IMG/VR virus record: IMGVR_UViG_3300029249_000134
Coordinates: 1-6,295 of that record
Strand: one strand, 5' to 3'
DNA: 6,295 nucleotides
Source: a virus
Taxonomy: Duplodnaviria; Heunggongvirae; Uroviricota; Caudoviricetes
The notes beneath the pieces are model-generated. The model was not told the DNA's origin. It saw only the letters and a list, made by a program, of their open reading frames with translations, and made no database searches. Both the position numbers and the translations under genes were made by a program. Shown in pieces: positions 1 to 6,295 of this stretch. Position 1 is the first letter of the stretch. Each line of letters begins with the position of its first letter.

Positions 1-1685
1 ACCAGTTGCTGCGCCTCTGTCTGCGAAAAAATCTCCGGATCATCAGGAAAACGGATGGCATACGACGTGGCTTCATCCGCAGGCGTGGGATCGGCTTTCA
101 TACGGGCATAGAGAATTTCTTTTGCGGTGTCCGTTCCCACTTCACACAGATACACGCCCCGCTGATTGCGGGTTTTTGGCATGGTGATCACCGGCTTGCC
201 ATAGACAGATGCGCCTTTTACCGGCAGCACCCGGAAAACACCGTGTTTTTTTGATCTCTGATAAACAATTTCACCATCGATCCCCCCGGTGTCCCAGCAG
301 ACACGGGAAATAGTCATTTCGGTGCCATCCGCATGGCGGTATTTTTTGTTGATCGCCGCATCCACACGTAACAGCGTCTCTTCCTCATCAGGACGCCCCA
401 TAATGATGATTTTATCCACCAGAAAGGCTTCCTCTCCCAGAGCCCATCCCCAGACATACATCTCAAAACGGTTTCGCTGCGAGTCAATGCCCGCCGTCAG
501 ATAAACCACCCGGGCAGGCACCGCCGCCGTGTAACGCACCACCTTATCCATCAGTACCTGGTGATCGAGTTTTTCGCCCACGGCCTCTTCCCAGGTCTCG
601 CCCAGCGTGGTGTTCACAAAGGTTTTCAGGCCGTTGGGATCTTTCAGTGCATCCAGCCAGTCATAGACAATCTGTACCCAGGTGGTGAACGGACTGTACG
701 CCGTCCAGATATGGAACGTGATGGAGCGCGGCGGCGGAATTTCATCACCCCGGGCGCTGAAAAACGTCAGACCGTCACGGGTCCACATGCCCGTGTTTTC
801 ACAGATCCACCGCCCGTTACTCTGGTCAAGCTCAGACTGATGGATCACACAGCCATGATGCTCACAAAGGTAGAAAACACTTTCTGGCTTATTCTTCTCC
901 CACTTAAGACCGAAAGGCGAGGCATCATCGCCAAATTTCAGATACTGCTCCTCCCCACAGTGCGGACAGGGCACATAAAAACGCATGAAGTGTGCCGACT
1001 CGTTAGCGGCTTTTTCGATCTGGCAGGTGCCTTTGATTTTAGGCGTCGAGCCGCGAATGGATTTTGGCCACACCGACCCCTCAATACGCTTATCCCCCAG
1101 CAGGGTTGGCGAGCCCTCTTTTTCGACATCCGGCTCGAACGAGGAAAGTTCGTCATAGCAGACCACGTCCACGGATTTTTCACGGTAGTTTTTGGCGGCA
1201 GCGCCGCCCAGGCACCAGAAACCGACGCCCGATGAAAAGCGTTTCAGCGTGAGAGTATTGTCACGATGTTTACGACCCAGCCATGGGGAAAGGTCTTTCA
1301 GGCATGGCACGTTCCGAATCGTCGCCTCCACGTGAGACTTCATAAAATCTTCAGCGGCAGAATCCGTGGGCTGAAAAAGCAGACTGTTTCGGGATTTATG
1401 CTCAATAAAATACCCGACCACCCCCAGCAACATCTTTGTATAGCCAACACGGGCAGATTTAATCAGGTTAACCGTGCGAACCTGGTCGTTACCCATACAG
1501 TTCATAATGGCGATCTGGAATGGCAGCGTTTTCCATTCTCCCTCACCATATGAAGATTCTTTAGGCAGATAATAATTTTGATCAGCCCATTCAACTGCCG
1601 TCATTGGTACAACCCTGACCAGAGGCTGCAGCGCAACCGAAACGGCAGCCATCATATTATTCAGTTGTTGCTCTGATATATTCAT
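1..1685 (-). CDS. A: Terminase large subunit (lambda gpA-like), partial; C-terminal ~80 residues lie beyond the window start
   Basis: Manual minus-strand translation from ATG at 1685 gives MNISEQQLNNMMAAVSVALQPLVRVVPMTAVEWADQNYYLPKESSYGEGEWKTLPFQIAIMN..., then ...KRFSSGVGFWCLGGAAAKNYREKSVDVVCYDELSSFEPD... and ...YVPCPHCGEEQYLKFGD..., ending at the window edge with ...AIRFPDDPEIFSQTEAQQL. Frame is open across all 1685 nt and matches remembered lambda gpA (MNIS start, AVEWAD, C-terminal FPNNPDIFDLTEAQQL). Start overlaps the Nu1-like gene by 29 nt, as in lambda. Not in the ORF track because it has no in-window stop. Confidence 0.93.
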   Translation of the reverse strand, partial: MNISEQQLNNMMAAVSVALQPLVRVVPMTAVEWADQNYYLPKESSYGEGEWKTLPFQIAIMNCMGNDQVRTVNLIKSARVGYTKMLLGVVGYFIEHKSRNSLLFQPTDSAAEDFMKSHVEATIRNVPCLKDLSPWLGRKHRDNTLTLKRFSSGVGFWCLGGAAAKNYREKSVDVVCYDELSSFEPDVEKEGSPTLLGDKRIEGSVWPKSIRGSTPKIKGTCQIEKAANESAHFMRFYVPCPHCGEEQYLKFGDDASPFGLKWEKNKPESVFYLCEHHGCVIHQSELDQSNGRWICENTGMWTRDGLTFFSARGDEIPPPRSITFHIWTAYSPFTTWVQIVYDWLDALKDPNGLKTFVNTTLGETWEEAVGEKLDHQVLMDKVVRYTAAVPARVVYLTAGIDSQRNRFEMYVWGWALGEEAFLVDKIIIMGRPDEEETLLRVDAAINKKYRHADGTEMTISRVCWDTGGIDGEIVYQRSKKHGVFRVLPVKGASVYGKPVITMPKTRNQRGVYLCEVGTDTAKEILYARMKADPTPADEATSYAIRFPDDPEIFSQTEAQQL

Positions 1686-2166
1686 CGAGTAAATCCGGTA
1701 ATTTATCCCCTGCCCGCGCACACTGATTTGCCCCCTTCGCAATAAGGGTTTTCAGATGGTCAAGATGGCGCGGTGTTAAATCAGGAAACTGTCGCTGCAT
1801 GGATAAAGGGATGGAATCAAGCGTACTGGATAACGCCATTGCCAGCTTACTGAGGGCAAAAATACAGAACCCGGTGTCAATAAGTTTTCCTTTTGACACC
1901 TCATTTTTTAACTGCTGTGTAACAGCCTGTTCTGCTGTCAGTTCCCATCTGGCAATAAGCAATTTCTCCTCATAGTCGTCTTCGCTATCGCCATCAGGCA
2001 CATCGTTTTTACTTCTCCTCAGATACGATATGTAAAAATCGCGCCAGGCATCCAGATCCAGTTGCCCTCGCTTATTCGATATCGGGGCACCCGGCAATTT
2101 CTGCAATCTGCGAAGCTGGCGATCGGTCAGACTTAAATGCCTGGCAACTTCAGTCTGCGTAGCCAC
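1657..2166 (-). CDS. nu1: Terminase small subunit (Nu1-like); N-terminal DNA-binding domain diverged from lambda, C-terminal half lambda-like
   Basis: 169-aa ORF from the track. C-terminal half (…DTGFCIFALSKLAMALSSTLDSIPLSMQRQFPDLTPRHLDHLK…LPDLLDEYI) aligns by eye with lambda Nu1 (…ETAFCTFVLSRIAGEIASILDGLPLSVQRRFPELENRHVDFLK…IPGLLSEYI). N-terminus (TQTEVARHLSLTDRQLRRLQ) is HTH-like but unlike lambda. GTG start at 2166 with a TGA in frame immediately upstream and GAGG 6 nt upstream. Confidence 0.88.
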   Translation of the reverse strand: MATQTEVARHLSLTDRQLRRLQKLPGAPISNKRGQLDLDAWRDFYISYLRRSKNDVPDGDSEDDYEEKLLIARWELTAEQAVTQQLKNEVSKGKLIDTGFCIFALSKLAMALSSTLDSIPLSMQRQFPDLTPRHLDHLKTLIAKGANQCARAGDKLPDLLDEYIRATTE

Positions 2167-2213
2167 TCCTCACCTCGCAAAAACTCTCACCTCACAATCA
2201 CAACAAAACCGGT

Positions 2214-2225
2214 CATGTCCGGTTT
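2214..2225 (-). repeat. cosB R1-like element (putative small-terminase binding site), motif AAACCGGACATG on the phage strand; sits inside a 7-6-7 palindrome 2206-2225
   Basis: Plus strand catgtccggttt; one of three copies of the same ~11-12 bp motif between the Nu1-like start and cosN. Function inferred by analogy to lambda R1. Confidence 0.55.
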
Positions 2226-2243
2226 ACATGTCTGTTTTTTGTT

Positions 2244-2255
2244 CATGTCCGGTTC
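2244..2255 (-). repeat. cosB R2-like element, same orientation as the R1-like copy
   Basis: Plus strand catgtccggttc, 30 bp from the R1-like copy. Confidence 0.55.
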
Positions 2256-2300
2256 ACAGAAGACCTGTTTTTATATTTTTCATATAGTTAACTTGAAGAG

Positions 2301-2312
2301 AAACCGGACATG
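2301..2312 (+). repeat. cosB R3-like element, inverted relative to R1/R2-like copies and closest to cosN
   Basis: Plus strand aaaccggacatg. Separated from the R2-like copy by an A/T-tract spacer (2256-2300, tttttatatttttcatatag) where lambda has the IHF site I1. The inverted R3 / spacer / R2 / R1 layout mirrors lambda cosB. Confidence 0.55.
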
Positions 2313-2349
2313 GATCCCGGAAAATTTTCATAAATAGCGAAAACCCGCG

Positions 2350-2361
2350 AGGTCGCCGCCC
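2350..2361. other. cosN cohesive-end site (12-nt overhang GGGCGGCGACCT on the minus strand), within a 45-bp block (2317-2361) identical to the lambda left end
   Basis: Reverse complement of 2317-2361 is GGGCGGCGACCTCGCGGGTTTTCGCTATTTATGAAAATTTTCCGG, matching the lambda genome start from memory. The adjacent 2362-2370 (reverse complement ccggttacg) resembles the lambda right-end terminus. Lies ~185 bp upstream of the Nu1-like start, as in lambda. Confidence 0.85.
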
Positions 2362-2396
2362 CGTAACCGGTCGGATCGCCGGAAAGGACCCACGAA

Positions 2397-2413
2397 ATGA
2401 TAATGATTATCAT
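2397..2413. promoter_or_regulatory. Perfect 8-1-8 palindrome ATGATAATgATTATCAT (Fur-box-like operator candidate) abutting a TATATA -10-like hexamer (2415-2420)
   Basis: Read directly. 2399-2413 GATAATGATTATCAT matches 14 of the first 15 positions of the Fur consensus GATAATGATAATCATTATC. Lies ~36 bp beyond cosN and ~150 bp upstream of the plus-strand ORF at 2568. Confidence 0.3.
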
Positions 2414-2567
2414 CTATATAAGGTTTATCACAACATGTGTGTACGCCATCAAACCACGAGAAATAATCAATTATGACGCAGGTATCGTATTAATTGATCT
2501 GCGTCAAATTAACGTAAAAGCAACTTCAGATAATACAAATCAGCAACACTGAATATGGGGAAACATT

Positions 2568-2753
2568 ATGTCATCAAAGAACAGAACCCGCAGAACAACA
2601 ACCCGCAACATCCGATTTCCAAACCAGATGATTGAACAAATTAACATCGCTCTTGATCTGAAAGGTTCAGGAAACTTTTCAGCGTGGGTTATTGAAGCCT
2701 GCAGAAGAAGGCTGTCAACAGAGAGTTCGGGTATGAATTACATAATTAAGTAA
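2568..2753 (+). CDS. Small (61 aa) basic protein, ribbon-helix-helix-like putative DNA-binding protein
   Basis: ATG at 2568 preceded by GGGGAAA with 7-nt spacing. Sequence MSSKNRTRRTTTRNIRFPNQMIEQINIALDLKGSGNFSAWVIEACRRRL has a basic N-terminal tail, a short strand (RNIRFP) and two helices, consistent with an Arc/MetJ/CopG-type fold. Opposite strand to the Nu1-like gene. Positionally reminiscent of ylcI/ynfO next to nohD/nohA in E. coli K-12 cryptic prophages, but the sequence match is not verified. Confidence 0.6.
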   Translation: MSSKNRTRRTTTRNIRFPNQMIEQINIALDLKGSGNFSAWVIEACRRRLSTESSGMNYIIK

Positions 2754-3382
2754 CATGGTGTTCACAGAACACGCAGTTACCGGACACATCAGTTTTCCAT
2801 TCGCTCCCCGGCAGTACAGGCTTCCCCTCTGACGGGATAGCCTGAAAAAATAACACAGAAAATTATTTGTTATAATTAATATAACTTACTCAAAAAAAAG
2901 CGACGAGAAAATCAGCATCAACGAACAATAAGCGCCAATACGTGATAACAAATGGCAGCCATATTTATCTGCAGTATAAGCAATGGACAGGATAACCACA
3001 CCAGAAACCGTCAGCATAAAATCCATTTGAACTTCCCCGGACAAAATCGACTCATCTAAAGATTTACAGCTCTTTTTATTATCAATATGTTAAAAGTAAA
3101 ATAAACAGATGTTCAATAACACGAATACAAAAACGTGCTGAAATTCAATGAATCCATTTCTGTGTCATCAATTAATAGTGATAAACATCCGGCTTCTTCC
3201 ACCATCGCACCGGACATGCGACTATGAGGGGACAACGCCGCGCTCCGTTAACGCGGTAAACCCCGGTGTGTATCGTTTTTGATTATCCCCGCACACTCGC
3301 ACAGAGGAGTCTCCCGGTCGGGCTGCGGTCTCTGTTAATGCGGGAATACGGCGACAATACCGCGCATGGATAATAAGGTCGC

Positions 3383-3607
3383 TCAACACACTGGCTGTAA
3401 TGCAGCGGATACCATGCGGCATTTAGCGGTATTCATCGTACACTCAACGGTTAGCTCTTCATTCGTGGCATTCACCTGAAAGGTCCGGGAGTGTAATTGC
3501 ATACATTTACCACTGAACGAACCTTCAACAAGAACACGACCACGCTGCAAAATACGGAACAGAATTGTTCCCTGAAGAGGCTTTACGGTTACCTGTAATT
3601 TCTTCAT
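3383..3607 (-). CDS. Hypothetical 74-aa protein with four Cys, directly downstream of Rz/Rz1, at the position where lambda has bor on the opposite strand
   Basis: ATG at 3607 with GGAGA 4 nt upstream, 23 bp after the Rz stop. Product MKKLQVTVKPLQGTILFRILQRGRVLVEGSFSGKCMQLHSRTFQVNATNEELTVECTMNTAKCRMVSAALQPVC has no signal peptide or TM segment and is not Bor-like. The track's longer version starts at a TTG (3625). Confidence 0.5.
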   Translation of the reverse strand: MKKLQVTVKPLQGTILFRILQRGRVLVEGSFSGKCMQLHSRTFQVNATNEELTVECTMNTAKCRMVSAALQPVC

Positions 3608-3630
3608 GCATTCTCCGGATAACAAAAATA

Positions 3631-4104
3631 CTAGTTAATACACTGAGTGCGGATATATTCCTGCGCCCCTCCCACCTGCTTCTGCATTGTCATCAACCGT
3701 TCTCTGAGGATGAAATAATCCCGTTCAGCGGTGTCTGCCAGTCGGGGGCCGGTTGCATTATCCACGCCGGAGGTGGTGGGGGCTTCACGCACGGAGCCTG
3801 GACAGGTGGCGTTGATCCGCAGGCGCTTACGACCAGCGGCAACGTCAGCGCGAAGAGTTTCATTTTCAGCTCTCGCATCGGCTAATTCCCTCGAGTATTT
3901 TGCATCGAGCGCAGCAACATCGCGCTGGCGCACCTGCATATCAGTAATGGTTGCGTTCGCCAGCTTCAGTTCACTGGCTTTGTTATCGCGCTGCGCTTTG
4001 TAGGTAATCGCGTTATCACGGTAATGGTCTGTTGCCATCCACAGCGCACCACAGGCCACCAGCAGAATAACGATAAACGCGGAAAGCATTCGGTTTATGT
4101 TCAC
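3631..4104 (-). CDS. Rz: i-spanin Rz
   Basis: Product contains [69 protein letters not shown]…[23 protein letters not shown], near-identical in blocks to remembered lambda Rz, with an N-terminal TM segment. GTG start at 4104 overlaps the upstream ORF stop (GTGA); alternative ATG at 4089. Confidence 0.9.
3693..3878 (-). CDS. Rz1: o-spanin Rz1, lipoprotein embedded in the +1 frame of Rz
   Basis: Product [61 protein letters not shown] has a lipobox (VVSA-C) and the proline-rich core shared with lambda Rz1 ([27 protein letters not shown]). Lies entirely within Rz in another frame. Confidence 0.88.
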
Positions 4105-4232
4105 CCCAGCAACCCCGACGAAGACAACATCATCCAGGCCATGGAAAGAAAAAGAGCAACCAGCATTAGTGAAAATGAAATGCCGACAATTACACAGAGG
4201 ATCTTCGCCAGCGTTATGAGTTTGTCTGACAT
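4101..4232 (-). CDS. Candidate small single-pass membrane peptide (43 aa) between endolysin and Rz; function unknown
   Basis: ATG at 4232 preceded by AGGGAGGA with 6-nt spacer. Product [43 protein letters not shown] is almost entirely one hydrophobic helix. Its TGA overlaps the Rz GTG start (GTGA), suggesting translational coupling. No homolog recognised. Confidence 0.45.
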
Positions 4233-4246
4233 GCTTAATCCTCCCT

Positions 4247-4429
4247 TCACGATTTCAACGCAATGACCAGTTTTGCCAGCCCATACAGCATCGGGGACAC
4301 AGCAACACCGACCGCCACCCACTTAATGGCAAAAGCCAGTGCTCTGCTGATGTCATCAGTTACAGGCGCTTTCAGTTCAAGGCCGTTTTTCATGGTCAAC
4401 CTCAACAGAATTCGTTTATACTTCGCCAT
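4247..4429 (-). CDS. Candidate small membrane protein (60 aa, amphipathic N-terminus and C-terminal TM) between endolysin and Rz; function unknown
   Basis: ATG at 4429 preceded by AAGGGAGAAC. Product [60 protein letters not shown]. Stop at 4247 is 14 bp before the next ORF's ATG, with that ORF's SD in between. The track's longer version starts at a GTG (4462) inside the hairpin flank; the ATG with SD is preferred. Confidence 0.45.
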
Positions 4430-4462
4430 GTTCTCCCTTGCCTTACTCAAGGTCAGAAACAC

Positions 4463-4502
4463 AAAACCCCGCTTGGTGCCAACAAACGGGGTTTTTACTT
4501 TT
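4463..4502. terminator. Candidate bidirectional intrinsic terminator: perfect 9-bp stem AAAACCCCG / CGGGGTTTT with 15-nt loop and U-rich tails on both strands
   Basis: Stem arms 4463-4471 and 4487-4495 are perfectly complementary (5 GC pairs). Plus strand continues TTTTTACTTTTATT; minus strand continues TTTTGTGTTTCT. Lies 91 bp after the endolysin stop and just upstream of the 60-aa ORF. Confidence 0.45.
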
Positions 4503-4585
4503 ATTCACTTACGTTTCGCCAGTTCGCAGGATTTCGTGTTATCCGCCCGCGTGGCCATGCCTTATTTTTCAGCAAAATATTCTGC

Positions 4586-5119
4586 TTATCTGTCGATACC
4601 CCAGCACGCCAGCGCGCTCTCCTGGTCACGACGGGATACCTGACCGTAACAGTTGTTTGAACGAATACGGCAGTCTCTGCCACCGTCCTTAATCCACCAG
4701 CGAATCGCCTCACAGGCACCTTTTCGATCGCCTGCATTAATTCGTTTATAAAACGTCGACGGGAAGCACTTACCGGGGCCAATGTTGTACGGACAGAATG
4801 ACGCGATCCCCGCTTTCTGGGGTTCGGTCAGCGGCACTTTGATGTTTTTCTCCACCCATGCCAGCGCCTTGTCACGTTCGATGGCATTAACCCGGTCGCA
4901 TTTTTCCTTTGACAGCTTCATGCCAGGAATAACAGGCTTACCATCCACCAGAATGGCACCACGGCAGATGGTCCAGATCCCCGCACCATCACGGTATGCC
5001 ATGGTGTGGTTACCTTCCTTTTCATCCAGAAACTGGTCGAGGATTTCAGGCGCAGAAGCACCTGCACCAATCAGCGCCAGAACGGCAGCCGACAGGCCGT
5101 ATTTTATTTTTTCGTTCAT
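4586..5119 (-). CDS. R: SAR endolysin (T4-lysozyme-type muramidase with N-terminal signal-anchor-release domain), phage 21 R-like
   Basis: 177-aa product has a weakly hydrophobic Gly/Ala-rich N-terminal segment (YGLSAAVLALIGAGASAP) followed by the catalytic triad spacing E-x8-D-x5-T (EGNHTMAYRDGAGIWT), as in T4 lysozyme and R21. No SD upstream of the ATG at 5119; a 6-bp hairpin (5121-5143) abuts the start. Confidence 0.92.
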   Translation of the reverse strand: MNEKIKYGLSAAVLALIGAGASAPEILDQFLDEKEGNHTMAYRDGAGIWTICRGAILVDGKPVIPGMKLSKEKCDRVNAIERDKALAWVEKNIKVPLTEPQKAGIASFCPYNIGPGKCFPSTFYKRINAGDRKGACEAIRWWIKDGGRDCRIRSNNCYGQVSRRDQESALACWGIDR

Positions 5120-5236
5120 GGGGATTTATCGATTTCTAATCCCTTGATATGTTAGGTATATAATCCAACACTCATGGTCGCTCTCATAAACATATCCCTT
5201 GAGACGCAGCAGATTACAACAAATGAAGCCATATAA

Positions 5237-5551
5237 ATGAACAGTAAAGAAAGTTTGCGCAGAAGATTTTTACAACTAATGACAGAAAACGTTAAATCAG
5301 AGTTACTTCTTCTGATGGCAGATAATAACGAAGCAACAAGCAGCATTCTTGCAGACCCTTACGGTAAGATCTCACATAAAACGCTGGATATTATTACCAC
5401 AACATTAACACCGCTGATGCTTCAACGGCTGAAACATAATATCAACGCATGGGTTAATGAAGAATTAAGTCCTCCCTGCTTATGGGATTCTCGTTACGCA
5501 TGTCAGCAAAAAATGCGAATTTTCAACTTACTATCACCAAAGCTCAGGTAG
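5237..5551 (+). CDS. Hypothetical 104-aa protein encoded opposite to the lysis genes inside an AT-rich insert between holin and endolysin (candidate moron)
   Basis: Track ORF MNSKESLRRRFLQLMTENVKSELLLLMADNNEATSSILADPYGKISHKTLDIITTTLTPLMLQRLKHNINAWVNEELSPPCLWDSRYACQQKMRIFNLLSPKLR. Protein-like composition but weak RBS. Consensus TATAAT at 5159-5164 upstream; 8-bp hairpin 5557-5586 right after the stop. Position and size resemble ydfR between essQ and rrrQ in K-12 Qin, but that is from memory and unverified. Confidence 0.45.
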   Translation: MNSKESLRRRFLQLMTENVKSELLLLMADNNEATSSILADPYGKISHKTLDIITTTLTPLMLQRLKHNINAWVNEELSPPCLWDSRYACQQKMRIFNLLSPKLR

Positions 5552-5556
5552 CCATA

Positions 5557-5586
5557 AAATCCTGCCCTTCATGGCATACAGGATTT
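5557..5586. terminator. Hairpin (8-bp stem AAATCCTG / CAGGATTT, 14-nt loop) immediately 3' of the 5237-5551 ORF; weak terminator candidate
   Basis: Arms 5557-5564 and 5579-5586 are perfectly complementary; tails are only weakly U-rich on either strand. Confidence 0.25.
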
Positions 5587-5806
5587 CAATGGAATCACAA
5601 TGACCAACTCTTGCACAGCTGTATCCCTGACTCCCCGACAACTCAGATTTTCAGTATCTGCTGCTATCTAAAGAGAAAGCGCACAAATGCAAGGGTCTTT
5701 CATCACGTCCTGTTATTGATTGCCTGTGACCTTTTCTCACCTCATGGAACGTTTTTTCAGTTAGAAATATTCATTTTACAACCAGTTCGTATTGTTTATT
5801 CATCGA

Positions 5807-6022
5807 CTACTCTCCCCGCGCCACCTTACGACGGTCCTCTCTGATTTTGAAATACAGGTTAGTCAGATACGTCAGCAGGCCAAACAGCAGACTCCCCAGC
5901 ACACCTATCGCCACCCACTGGGACGGAGAGACTTTGTCCAGCAGCTGCAGTAACCAGTATCCCGTCCCCACCGCTGACGTGGTGTATGACACACCCGTTG
6001 TGATTTTTTCCATCTGGTACAT
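5807..6022 (-). CDS. S: Class II holin / pinholin, phage 21 S-like, with dual-start motif (Met1 and Met4)
   Basis: 71-aa product [71 protein letters not shown] has two TM segments and a basic C-terminus, closely resembling remembered S21. GGGAGA lies 6 nt upstream of the ATG at 6022; second ATG at 6013. Pinholins characteristically pair with SAR endolysins. Confidence 0.9.
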
Positions 6023-6097
6023 ACCCCGTCTCCCGCAATCCGGAAGCTCACAACAACAGGAGGGGCATCAGCTCACACCGACAGCCCCTGCGTATGG

Positions 6098-6295
6098 TTA
6101 CATCATCATTTCGCCGCCAGGCTGAGGCTCACTGCTACCGTCAGGCTGAGACACAACGCCATCTGAAACAGCACTGTCACCCGCGCCGTCTTCAGGCTCA
6201 GGAGCAGCCGGTCCCCCCAGCAGCTCATCCAGAATGGCATCCACTTCAGCATCAAGACGCGCCTCAAGATTCTGGCGGAGTTGCTGTTTCAGTGC
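6098..6295 (-). CDS. 3' end of an upstream gene (N-terminus beyond window); C-terminal 65 residues are acidic, Pro/Gly/Ser-rich and end in MMM
   Basis: Manual minus-strand translation from the window edge is open for 65 codons: ALKQQLRQNLEARLDAEVDAILDELLGGPAAPEPEDGAGDSAVSDGVVSQPDGSSEPQPGGEMMM then TAA (6100-6098). Codon usage is enterobacterial-like. Identity unknown; does not look like a Q antiterminator C-terminus. Confidence 0.5.
   Translation of the reverse strand, partial: ALKQQLRQNLEARLDAEVDAILDELLGGPAAPEPEDGAGDSAVSDGVVSQPDGSSEPQPGGEMMM

Follow-up and report, generated by a model that had tools for sequence, protein, structure and literature searches.

In phage lambda and in 21/DLP12-type loci, the endolysin gene R is followed directly by the spanin gene Rz. 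We analyzed a 6,295-nucleotide (nt) stretch of viral DNA (IMG/VR record IMGVR_UViG_3300029249_000134, positions 1 to 6,295; the window), which is the late region of a lambdoid prophage with every relevant gene on the minus strand. Here, a terminator-like hairpin and two small open reading frames (ORFs) separate R from Rz: ORF1, of 60 amino acids (aa), and ORF2, of 43 aa. An earlier note on this DNA had described the interval as an insertion relative to lambda and phage 21, and our comparison agrees. We consider it very likely that ORF1 and ORF2 are real, portable, late-expressed membrane-peptide genes. Our best explanation of what they do is more tentative, somewhat short of an even chance: they may be accessory peptides of the inner membrane, expressed late and dispensable, with a role at the lysis stage that does not depend on the class of holin or endolysin.

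Several described systems share features with this module. The Mu gp25 releasin is likewise a small, membrane-anchored lysis accessory protein that is not a holin, encoded a few genes past an endolysin of the signal-anchor-release (SAR) type; it has 99 aa, an N-out/C-in topology, a 73-aa anionic cytoplasmic domain and DUF2730 (PMC9239132). Unlike gp25, ORF1 is 60 aa long, basic and predicted N-in, and ORF2 is a bare helix. Neither peptide matched DUF2730 in Pfam, neither showed the releasin topology as predicted from charge distribution, and the module is also found with soluble endolysins. Dual-start antiholins (S21-71/S21-68, lambda S107/S105) are echoed by two candidate start codons in ORF1, Met1 and Met13; a product begun at Met1 would gain four basic residues, and the start region is unusually conserved in nucleotides. 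Unlike these antiholins, ORF1 carries a single helix and next to no charged tail at its C-terminus, and its dual start is one that we infer. No holin family in Pfam matched ORF1 or ORF2, PF04971 being found only in the 71-aa ORF, and both are genes separate from the holin gene rather than its alternative-start products.

Hok-type toxins such as that of hokW-sokW in Sp5 are also small hydrophobic inner-membrane peptides of lambdoid and Shiga-toxin (Stx) prophages, and HokW aids Stx-phage release (PMC8621323). The module shows no homology to Hok and has no promoter of its own or mok-like frame, and its antisense RNA is hypothetical; unlike HokW, which is made earlier than R, it should be co-transcribed with R. 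A small hydrophobic peptide, as in type I toxins, was found, and a toxin promoter of its own was not. The lambdoid morons (bor, lom, and ant in the R-Rz slot) are, like the module, extra DNA of lower guanine-plus-cytosine (GC) content with a terminator alongside and a mosaic distribution. In a classical moron, a promoter of its own stands upstream and a terminator follows downstream, whereas the module has a terminator upstream, no promoter that we found, and ORFs translationally chained to the next late gene. The separated spanins of phiP27 (Kongari et al. 2018) are similar in that an ORF2-type or ORF1-family peptide occupies the usual position of the inner-membrane spanin (i-spanin) gene. 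Unlike an i-spanin, ORF1 and ORF2 lack a periplasmic coiled coil and have fewer than 10 residues past the helix, and the window has a complete Rz/Rz1; PF03245 matched only the 157-aa Rz and neither ORF1 nor ORF2. Within PHROG and RefSeq families the window peptides are ordinary full-length members. These families carry no functional annotation and no Pfam/NCBIfam model, and the placement names the peptides without explaining them. ORF1 and ORF2 are thus catalogued in databases yet biologically uncharacterised; what is new is the hairpin-bounded, portable arrangement.

Coding evidence for ORF1 and ORF2

ORF1 occupies 4247..4429 on the minus strand (ATG at 4429, stop at 4249-4247), and its Shine-Dalgarno (SD) sequence, AAGGGAGAA (4431..4439), lies one base before the ATG. 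ORF2 occupies 4101..4232 on the same strand (ATG at 4232, stop at 4103-4101), and its SD sequence, AGGGAGGA (4239..4246), follows the ORF1 stop without a gap. The stop codon of ORF2, a TGA, overlaps the Rz GTG start (4104-4102) as GTGA (4101..4104, minus strand), and a GTGA-type joint also connects ORF2 with other small ORFs in related loci. The earlier note had placed both ORFs, their SD sequences and the hairpin where we found them, and its view that the overlap chains translation to Rz stands; the nine perfect pairs it gave for the hairpin extend to 13. The GTG at 4104-4102 is credible as the Rz start because GTG-AAC at 4104 aligns with the ATG-AAC starts of other Rz genes. PGAP places the Rz start 15 nt further downstream, at an ATG. 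Only a G-run lies upstream of the GTG.

ORF1 has a basic N-terminal segment, net charge +7, and then a long, moderately hydrophobic helix (maximum Kyte-Doolittle value 1.88). AlphaFold2 gave two helices and no structure that merited searching for similar folds, with residues 23-59 helical at a predicted local distance difference test score of about 88; 2-3 residues extend beyond the helix. F33-A-I-K-W37, S45 and Y49-G50 are invariant. ORF2 has a strongly hydrophobic helix (residues 11-29, maximum Kyte-Doolittle value 2.89), with Lys4 and Lys10 ahead of it and 7-8 residues after. By the positive-inside rule, both peptides should be N-in and either single-pass or membrane-embedded. Hydropathy and AlphaFold2 agree with the C-terminal helix of ORF1 and the hydrophobic helix of ORF2 that had been described from the sequence earlier. 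An internal ATG of ORF1, Met13 (MKNG..., 4391..4403, minus strand, with a GAGG 6 nt upstream), is nearly invariant. It is a possible second start that would yield a 48-aa product, and many ORF1 homologues are annotated from Met13.

We compared both ORFs with protein families. ORF1 residues 1-60 matched positions 8-67 of 67 in the PHROG 1115 profile (2.6e-42), with further matches to PHROGs 4493 and 3246, and ORF2 residues 1-43 matched positions 7-49 of 49 in PHROG 4906 (2.1e-23). All four families are of unknown function, and their lengths match those of ORF1 and ORF2. PGAP annotates an identical stretch of Escherichia coli MFDS1001074 with hypothetical proteins WP_001151823.1 (60 aa, ORF1) and WP_001280932.1 (43 aa, ORF2). 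Pfam, NCBIfam and PADLOC gave no assignment for either peptide; within Pfam, ORF1 had no match and ORF2 just a sub-threshold one to DUF3930. A search of the ORF1 profile against 1.84 billion representatives returned only 21 clusters, none of known function, an ORF1 alignment scan of species-representative genomes returned no relative, and our literature search found no paper discussing ORF1 or ORF2.

Substitution patterns were examined as the ratio of nonsynonymous to synonymous change (pN/pS). The in-frame pN/pS of ORF1 was 0.28 in a comparison of nine diverged loci (E. coli, E. marmotae and Salmonella). Shifted sense frames gave 0.83 and 2.3, and antisense frames 0.39 to 3.5; the antisense frame at 0.39 shares the ORF1 wobble position, and the other four frames lay at 0.83-3.5. 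Codons 21-60 of ORF1 gave 0.22 with E. coli versus Salmonella included. For ORF2, in-frame pN/pS was 0.30 among close relatives and 0.51 among 18 variants, a few of them frameshifted copies, whereas shifted reading frames gave 0.6-1.35. Among 52 haplotypes from viral contigs, 13 of the 20 variable sites in ORF1 fell at third codon positions. These sequence comparisons show that ORF1 and ORF2 both code for protein and that purifying selection acts on the annotated frames. The two genes are conserved with synonymous-biased substitution, and the proposal that these are real, probably translated genes was supported, with full-length families of equal size, purifying selection and plaque-forming carriers. 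We rejected the possibility that the peptides are N-terminal or other remnants of a larger, disrupted gene: the database proteins of 71-90 aa with the same C-terminus as ORF1 are artefacts of gene calling, in which the +1 frame of ORF2 is read through into a truncated ORF1. In a minority of prophage copies, a frameshift replaces the C-terminal half of ORF2 (L141, L143) or of ORF1 (P0063, P0104), as would fit either weak constraint or the decay of cryptic prophages.

We also assessed the signals that could drive expression. A promoter scan from 3300 to 6295, including the R-ORF1 interval, returned no minus-strand promoter-like site. Because no promoter was found, a terminator lies upstream and the gap from the hairpin to the ORF1 ATG is 33 nt, we infer that the peptides are expressed only from antiterminated late transcripts. 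Such late-only expression argues against a role in lysogenic conversion. A weak antisense promoter-like site, TGGTCA-18-TATACT (4393-4422, plus strand, 9/12 matches), lies inside ORF1 codons 3-13; one plus-strand promoter-like site was found versus 3.8 expected by chance from shuffled sequence. Speculatively, an antisense transcript from 4393-4422 would cover both the SD sequence and the start codon of ORF1 and stop at the hairpin. E. coli and Salmonella have almost the same DNA over the stretch that runs from the hairpin to codon 18 of ORF1. The synonymous divergence of ORF1 (pS) was 0.067 in codons 1-20 and 0.41 in codons 21-60, a six-fold difference. This low synonymous change fits dual-start signals at Met1 and Met13, an antisense promoter or recent recombination.

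Of 5426 complete E. coli genomes, 989 (about 18%) contained 80% or more of a 571-bp query running from the R end to the Rz start. The module is carried by the plaque-forming phages PhiR5_2 and PhiR12_1 to _5, propagated on K-12 or E. coli C. Among phage records, ORF2 was present in 276 and ORF1 in 14, and ORF2 was often unannotated. The unannotated ant-Rz gap of 933W (153 nt; NC_000924 about 27420-27569; L231 1821-1970) holds an ORF2 homologue of full length, MMGWLMISDKLITLVKSLCVLVGISFLVMLVAIFFSTAWRVLTLSGLVG, and the ant stop lies within the start region of this homologue. Many further Stx-phage records leave the match region without any annotation. The updated EDL933 genome annotates the ORF2 homologue as EDL933_1392, which a supplement on the enterohaemorrhagic E. 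coli translatome merely lists among annotated short proteins.

The hairpin-bounded unit across lysis cassettes

The hairpin, AAAACCCCGTTTG-TTGGCAC-CAAGCGGGGTTTT (4495..4463, minus strand), has a 13-bp stem and a 7-nt loop; nine perfect outer pairs are followed by one G-U and three further pairs. A terminator scan marked 4463..4495 as terminator-like. The stem is followed by GTGTTTCTGA on the minus strand and by TTTTTACTTTTATT on the plus strand, and a conserved A-tract (4496-4500) and a U-rich tract (4453-4462) flank it. The plus-strand tail is no worse than the minus-strand tail, its U-tract being the better of the two, and the hairpin looks bidirectional as a terminator. Pairing was kept in 95% of cells across 14 variants, among which stem position 6 reads U-G, U-A, A-U, G-C or G-U, and the covariation score was reached by no shuffle. 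An Rfam scan of the window gave nothing credible (three sub-threshold matches, E about 0.7). A small SD-sequestering hairpin upstream of ORF1 was also considered and rejected, as the alignment showed that it is not kept in L220 and L224. Among cassettes that differ upstream, homology starts at AAAAGNAAAACCCCG, and the same hairpin is borne by different downstream units. The hairpin singled out in the earlier note is therefore present, although not as a separate oddity: judged from these alignments, it is the conserved left boundary of a portable module.

We aligned the window with loci that carry unrelated holins and endolysins. Similarity ran from the hairpin through ORF1, and through ORF2 in E. 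coli, with unrelated sequence upstream. The backgrounds comprised an S21 holin with lysozyme in the window, holin_2_3 with lysozyme in Salmonella L166, an S21-type holin with lysozyme and a P22-type antirepressor in L170, the lambda-S-type holin_3_1 with a soluble GH19 endolysin in L171, and holin_8 and holin_3_7 with soluble GH108 or M15 endolysins in L218-L226. These alignments show that the hairpin, ORF1 and ORF2 move as one unit between otherwise unrelated lysis cassettes. The GC content of the module is 0.478, compared to 0.535 for R and 0.548 for Rz. The module is dispensable for basic lysis because close relatives do without it; L201 has the same 177-aa R with Rz directly after and an empty slot. 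Where the module accompanies S21-type cassettes, the holin starts with MKSMDK (the classical S21 dual start), MYQMEK (no basic residue between its two Met codons) or the single-start IHQMEK (first Met lost). We rejected the idea that ORF1 and ORF2 substitute for a missing dual-start antiholin, as the module loci show all three holin start types.

The downstream neighbour in every lysis-cassette occurrence is a gene of the outer-membrane (OM) step, either Rz/Rz1 or a phiP27-type lipoprotein. The distance from the last peptide gene to Rz in Salmonella is 10-20 nt for any holin or endolysin class, and in L218, L224 and L230 a peptide gene stands directly ahead of the lipoprotein phrog_7528. Kongari et al. 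2018 described this 60-aa lipoprotein (PHROG 7528) as the separated outer-membrane spanin (o-spanin) of phiP27, paired with a 64-aa i-spanin. The phiP27-type cassettes (L229 2670-3183, L224 2840-3022, L230 2326-2683) have no Rz/Rz1. From the sequence, the 64-aa i-spanin call looks doubtful because it overlaps a plausible opposite-strand ORF of 90 aa. In prophages related to phiP27, the place immediately upstream of the lipoprotein is taken instead by a peptide of ORF2 type or of the ORF1 family.

The R-Rz slot holds a variable array of mini-peptides. The ORF1-ORF2 form of the window was the commonest among the fetched loci; other fillings were ORF1-ORF2-ORF1'-D, A-ORF2-ORF1'-D, ant-A-ORF2-ORF1'-D, A alone (L172) and, in 933W and most Stx phages, ant-ORF2. 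ORF1' is a 40-aa truncated ORF1 whose GTG start overlaps the ORF2 stop, D is a 28-33-aa peptide matching the ORF1 PHROGs, and A belongs to PHROG 6632. Successive mini-ORFs are connected by GTGA, ATGA or TGATATG overlaps. Full ORF1, truncated ORF1' and D occur together at L051 2068-2646 and L003 2877-3371, a layout that reads as a partial tandem duplication, with up to four coupled mini-ORFs ahead of Rz. Distant ORF1 relatives from the profile search retain the N-terminal motif and several end in IRWW, like D and A; the shared motif and ends place the ORF1, D and A peptides in one small superfamily. Salmonella L166, L170 and L171 have a 25-nt insertion after the conserved SD sequence upstream of ORF1. 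It makes an 8-codon leader ORF (ATG TGT AGG GAG GTG TGT TCC CTG TGA) whose stop overlaps the GTG start of ORF1, and ORF2 is absent there.

ORF1-family members also occur outside lysis cassettes. L168 has one after a tail-fibre gene, L227 has one among tail genes, where an ATGA joint couples it to an A-type peptide, and in L228 they precede a portal-like gene. The units at L228 230-740 and L168 2900-3260 are flanked by GC-rich terminator-like hairpins, and L228 has two tandem units, both ending in IRWW, just ahead of the portal-like gene. These loci suggest a general unit of hairpin plus mini-peptide that may insert at late-operon junctions. An Rz scan of species-representative genomes yielded about a dozen usable loci, and the rest were mostly lambda-contaminated assemblies. 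Dozens of genomes assigned to unrelated taxa (relatives of Bacillus, Flavobacteria, Actinobacteria and metagenome-assembled genomes; L173-L198 and others) had an Rz on a short contig, each with the same 69% identity, and these copies are almost certainly contamination of assemblies by phage lambda control DNA.

The minus-strand gene order in the window is S21-family holin, R, the interval, Rz/Rz1, a 74-aa ORF, and the small and large terminase subunits. The holin (5807..6022, minus strand) is a 71-aa class II protein of the S21 family (PF04971) with the N-terminus MYQMEK. R (4586..5119, minus strand) is a 177-aa lysozyme of the 933W type (PF00959) with a weakly hydrophobic, SAR-like N-terminal segment. 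The 933W-type R was a predicted SAR endolysin in a comparative study, and the Mu releasin study employed the 933W enzyme among its SAR endolysins (PMC9239132). A spacer of 83 nt (4503..4585, minus strand) runs from the R stop to the hairpin. It is common to 933W and Salmonella cassettes, and because it is absent from GH108/M15 cassettes we place it outside the core module as the alignments define it. Rz (3631..4104, minus strand; PF03245) encodes the 157-aa i-spanin, with Rz1, which encodes the o-spanin (3693-3878, minus strand; PF06085), embedded within it. The 74-aa ORF past Rz (3386-3607, minus strand) matches the middle of PHROG 2571 (unknown function). It is also kept downstream of the module in GH108/M15-type cassettes (L218 3195-3419), and therefore the conserved core reaches past ORF1-ORF2. 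Between holin and endolysin, the window has an insert of ~690 bp with low GC content (0.39; 5120-5806). It contains a plus-strand ORF (5237-5551) of 104 aa counted from the first ATG, which PGAP gives as 90 aa (WP_122995794.1; PHROG 1853, unknown function). PhiR5_2 and similar relatives have only 4 nt between the holin stop and the R start.

Proposed role of the peptides and alternative explanations

Among the small phage proteins of the inner membrane that are made late and whose function is known, most act in lysis. In the explanation we prefer, the module would represent a small superfamily of single-helix inner-membrane peptides encoded between the endolysin and the outer-membrane-disruption genes of enterobacterial temperate phages. 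The peptides would be made from Q-antiterminated late transcripts alongside holin, endolysin and spanin, with a strong ribosome-binding site of its own for each ORF. The GTGA overlap would pass ribosomes from ORF2 to Rz, replacing the direct R-Rz adjacency. Late in infection, the peptides would enter the cytoplasmic membrane and might tune the timing or efficiency of lysis, which is the weakest step of the proposal; they would not be lysogenic-conversion factors.

Several observations weigh against this explanation. The promoter scan was a simple consensus search, which a weak or non-sigma-70 promoter could escape. The antirepressor gene ant also occupies the R-Rz junction, and position alone may reflect a permissive insertion site rather than a lysis role. 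The repeated placement could come from swapping of holin-endolysin blocks around a fixed core, not from positional selection. Distant ORF1-family members, each with a preceding GC-rich hairpin, lie among tail or head genes, and some prophage copies carry the frameshifts noted above.

The peptides might instead be partners in the spanin step, either as inner-membrane regulators or helpers of the i-spanin/o-spanin complex or as a minimal kind of i-spanin-like partner for the phiP27-type lipoprotein. In every lysis-cassette occurrence, the last peptide gene adjoins the OM-step gene or overlaps its start, ORF2 homologues stand ahead of Rz in 933W and most Stx phages, and Kongari et al. list the lipoprotein as the phiP27 o-spanin, with a paired i-spanin call that looks doubtful. 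We nevertheless regard this as unlikely. Direct bridging to an o-spanin is implausible for peptides that lack a periplasmic domain (ORF2 has 7-8 residues there and ORF1 about 3); Rz relatives function without the peptides in lambda, phage 21 and L201; distant family members sit away from spanins; and the start/stop coupling may reflect the mere need of any surviving insertion to keep Rz translated. An extended form of this idea, to which we give a similarly small chance, is that the mini-peptides (ORF1/ORF2, A- and D-type) form a new class of lysis factors, inner-membrane partners or gatekeepers at the spanin-dependent step. Stop/start coupling would then fix the ratio of peptide to OM protein, and output might be set by the dual start, an antisense RNA or both. 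It is also conceivable, if improbable, that the ORFs are a translational relay carrying ribosomes to a weakly initiated Rz, or selfish passengers spread by recombination, with little or no function for the peptides themselves. Chains of two to four mini-ORFs with GTGA, ATGA and TGATATG overlaps leading up to Rz, the bare G-run ahead of the Rz GTG, the varying number and order of peptides with partial duplications, and a hairpin common to different downstream units, as for a recombination joint, would all suit it. Selection at the amino acid level (pN/pS 0.22 in ORF1 codons 21-60, E. coli versus Salmonella) and the invariant F33-A-I-K-W37 and Y49-G50 do not, as a pure relay would not keep peptide sequence. 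Salmonella, moreover, keeps ORF1 without ORF2 and with its own leader ORF.

The near-invariant start of the module could also point to an antisense-gated toxic peptide resembling a type I toxin-antitoxin system, in which a plus-strand RNA from within ORF1 would cover the ribosome-binding site and stop at the hairpin. The 4393-4422 plus-strand site would give a transcript of roughly 75 nt ending at the hairpin, its -10 reads TATAAT in the distant homologue L227, and the A-tract upstream of the hairpin is conserved. The contrast in pS (0.067 for codons 1-20 versus 0.41 for 21-60), the almost invariant DNA from hairpin to ATG and the precedent of hokW-sokW in Sp5 fit as well. We consider this quite unlikely. 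The promoter matches at 9/12 positions in a sequence with fewer such sites than its shuffles (1 versus 3.8), its -35 is weak and is misplaced in L228, and a Y4C change in 20 loci damages the -10. No Rfam family matched, the toxin mRNA would have no promoter of its own, and low synonymous change may equally mean Met1/Met13 dual-start signals or recent recombination. The earlier note had further offered a membrane-acting moron (superinfection exclusion or toxin), a reading in which the resident prophage would make the peptides and they would protect or alter its host. The part that stood is the portability: a lower-GC unit lies between genes that are adjacent in relatives, nearby slots hold classic morons (ant in the R-Rz slot, bor after Rz in 933W), and family members occur at tail and head junctions. 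The part that did not is expression in the prophage state. No promoter was found in the 33 nt between terminator and ORF1, and the upstream terminator would block read-through in a lysogen; superinfection exclusion or lysogenic toxicity is therefore unlikely. PADLOC gave no match, and translation of the ORFs is chained to that of Rz, a late gene. We rate a lysogenic-conversion moron as a slim prospect. The lowest probability, that of a very unlikely reading, goes to regulators specific to the pinholin or SAR endolysin, that is, an S21-type antiholin or a releasin-like factor, both of which the note had also proposed. An S21-family holin and a 933W-type SAR endolysin do accompany the peptides in the window and in Stx phages, and the weakly hydrophobic ORF1 segment (1.88) resembles SAR and pinholin segments. 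The company the module keeps argues against the antiholin role: lambda-S-type, holin_8 and holin_3_7 holins, and S21 holins with MKSMDK dual-start, MYQMEK or single-start IHQMEK termini. A releasin is opposed by the soluble GH19, GH108 and M15 endolysins that the module follows, the lack of DUF2730, and a strongly basic ORF1 with a predicted N-in topology opposite to that of the releasin. The same R also occurs with Rz directly after it.

Implications for lysis in lambdoid and Shiga-toxin phages

ORF2-type genes, often unannotated, are the immediate upstream neighbours of Rz in 933W and in most Shiga-toxin phages sequenced, and about one complete E. coli genome in five has the full module. As a hairpin-bounded unit that is portable, prevalent in Stx phages and constant in its place upstream of spanin genes, the module is a notable, well-defined target for tests in phages of medical relevance. 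Should the peptides turn out to be marginal, the module still illustrates how lambdoid lysis cassettes are reshuffled and exposes a gap in reference annotation that is worth mending. If the peptides influence the timing or efficiency of lysis, phage yield and Shiga toxin release would be affected, and a pathway usually seen as complete with holin, endolysin and spanin would gain an extra component. If the gatekeeper idea were true, outer-membrane disruption, thought to be unregulated after wall degradation, would be a controlled step in Stx and lambdoid phages.

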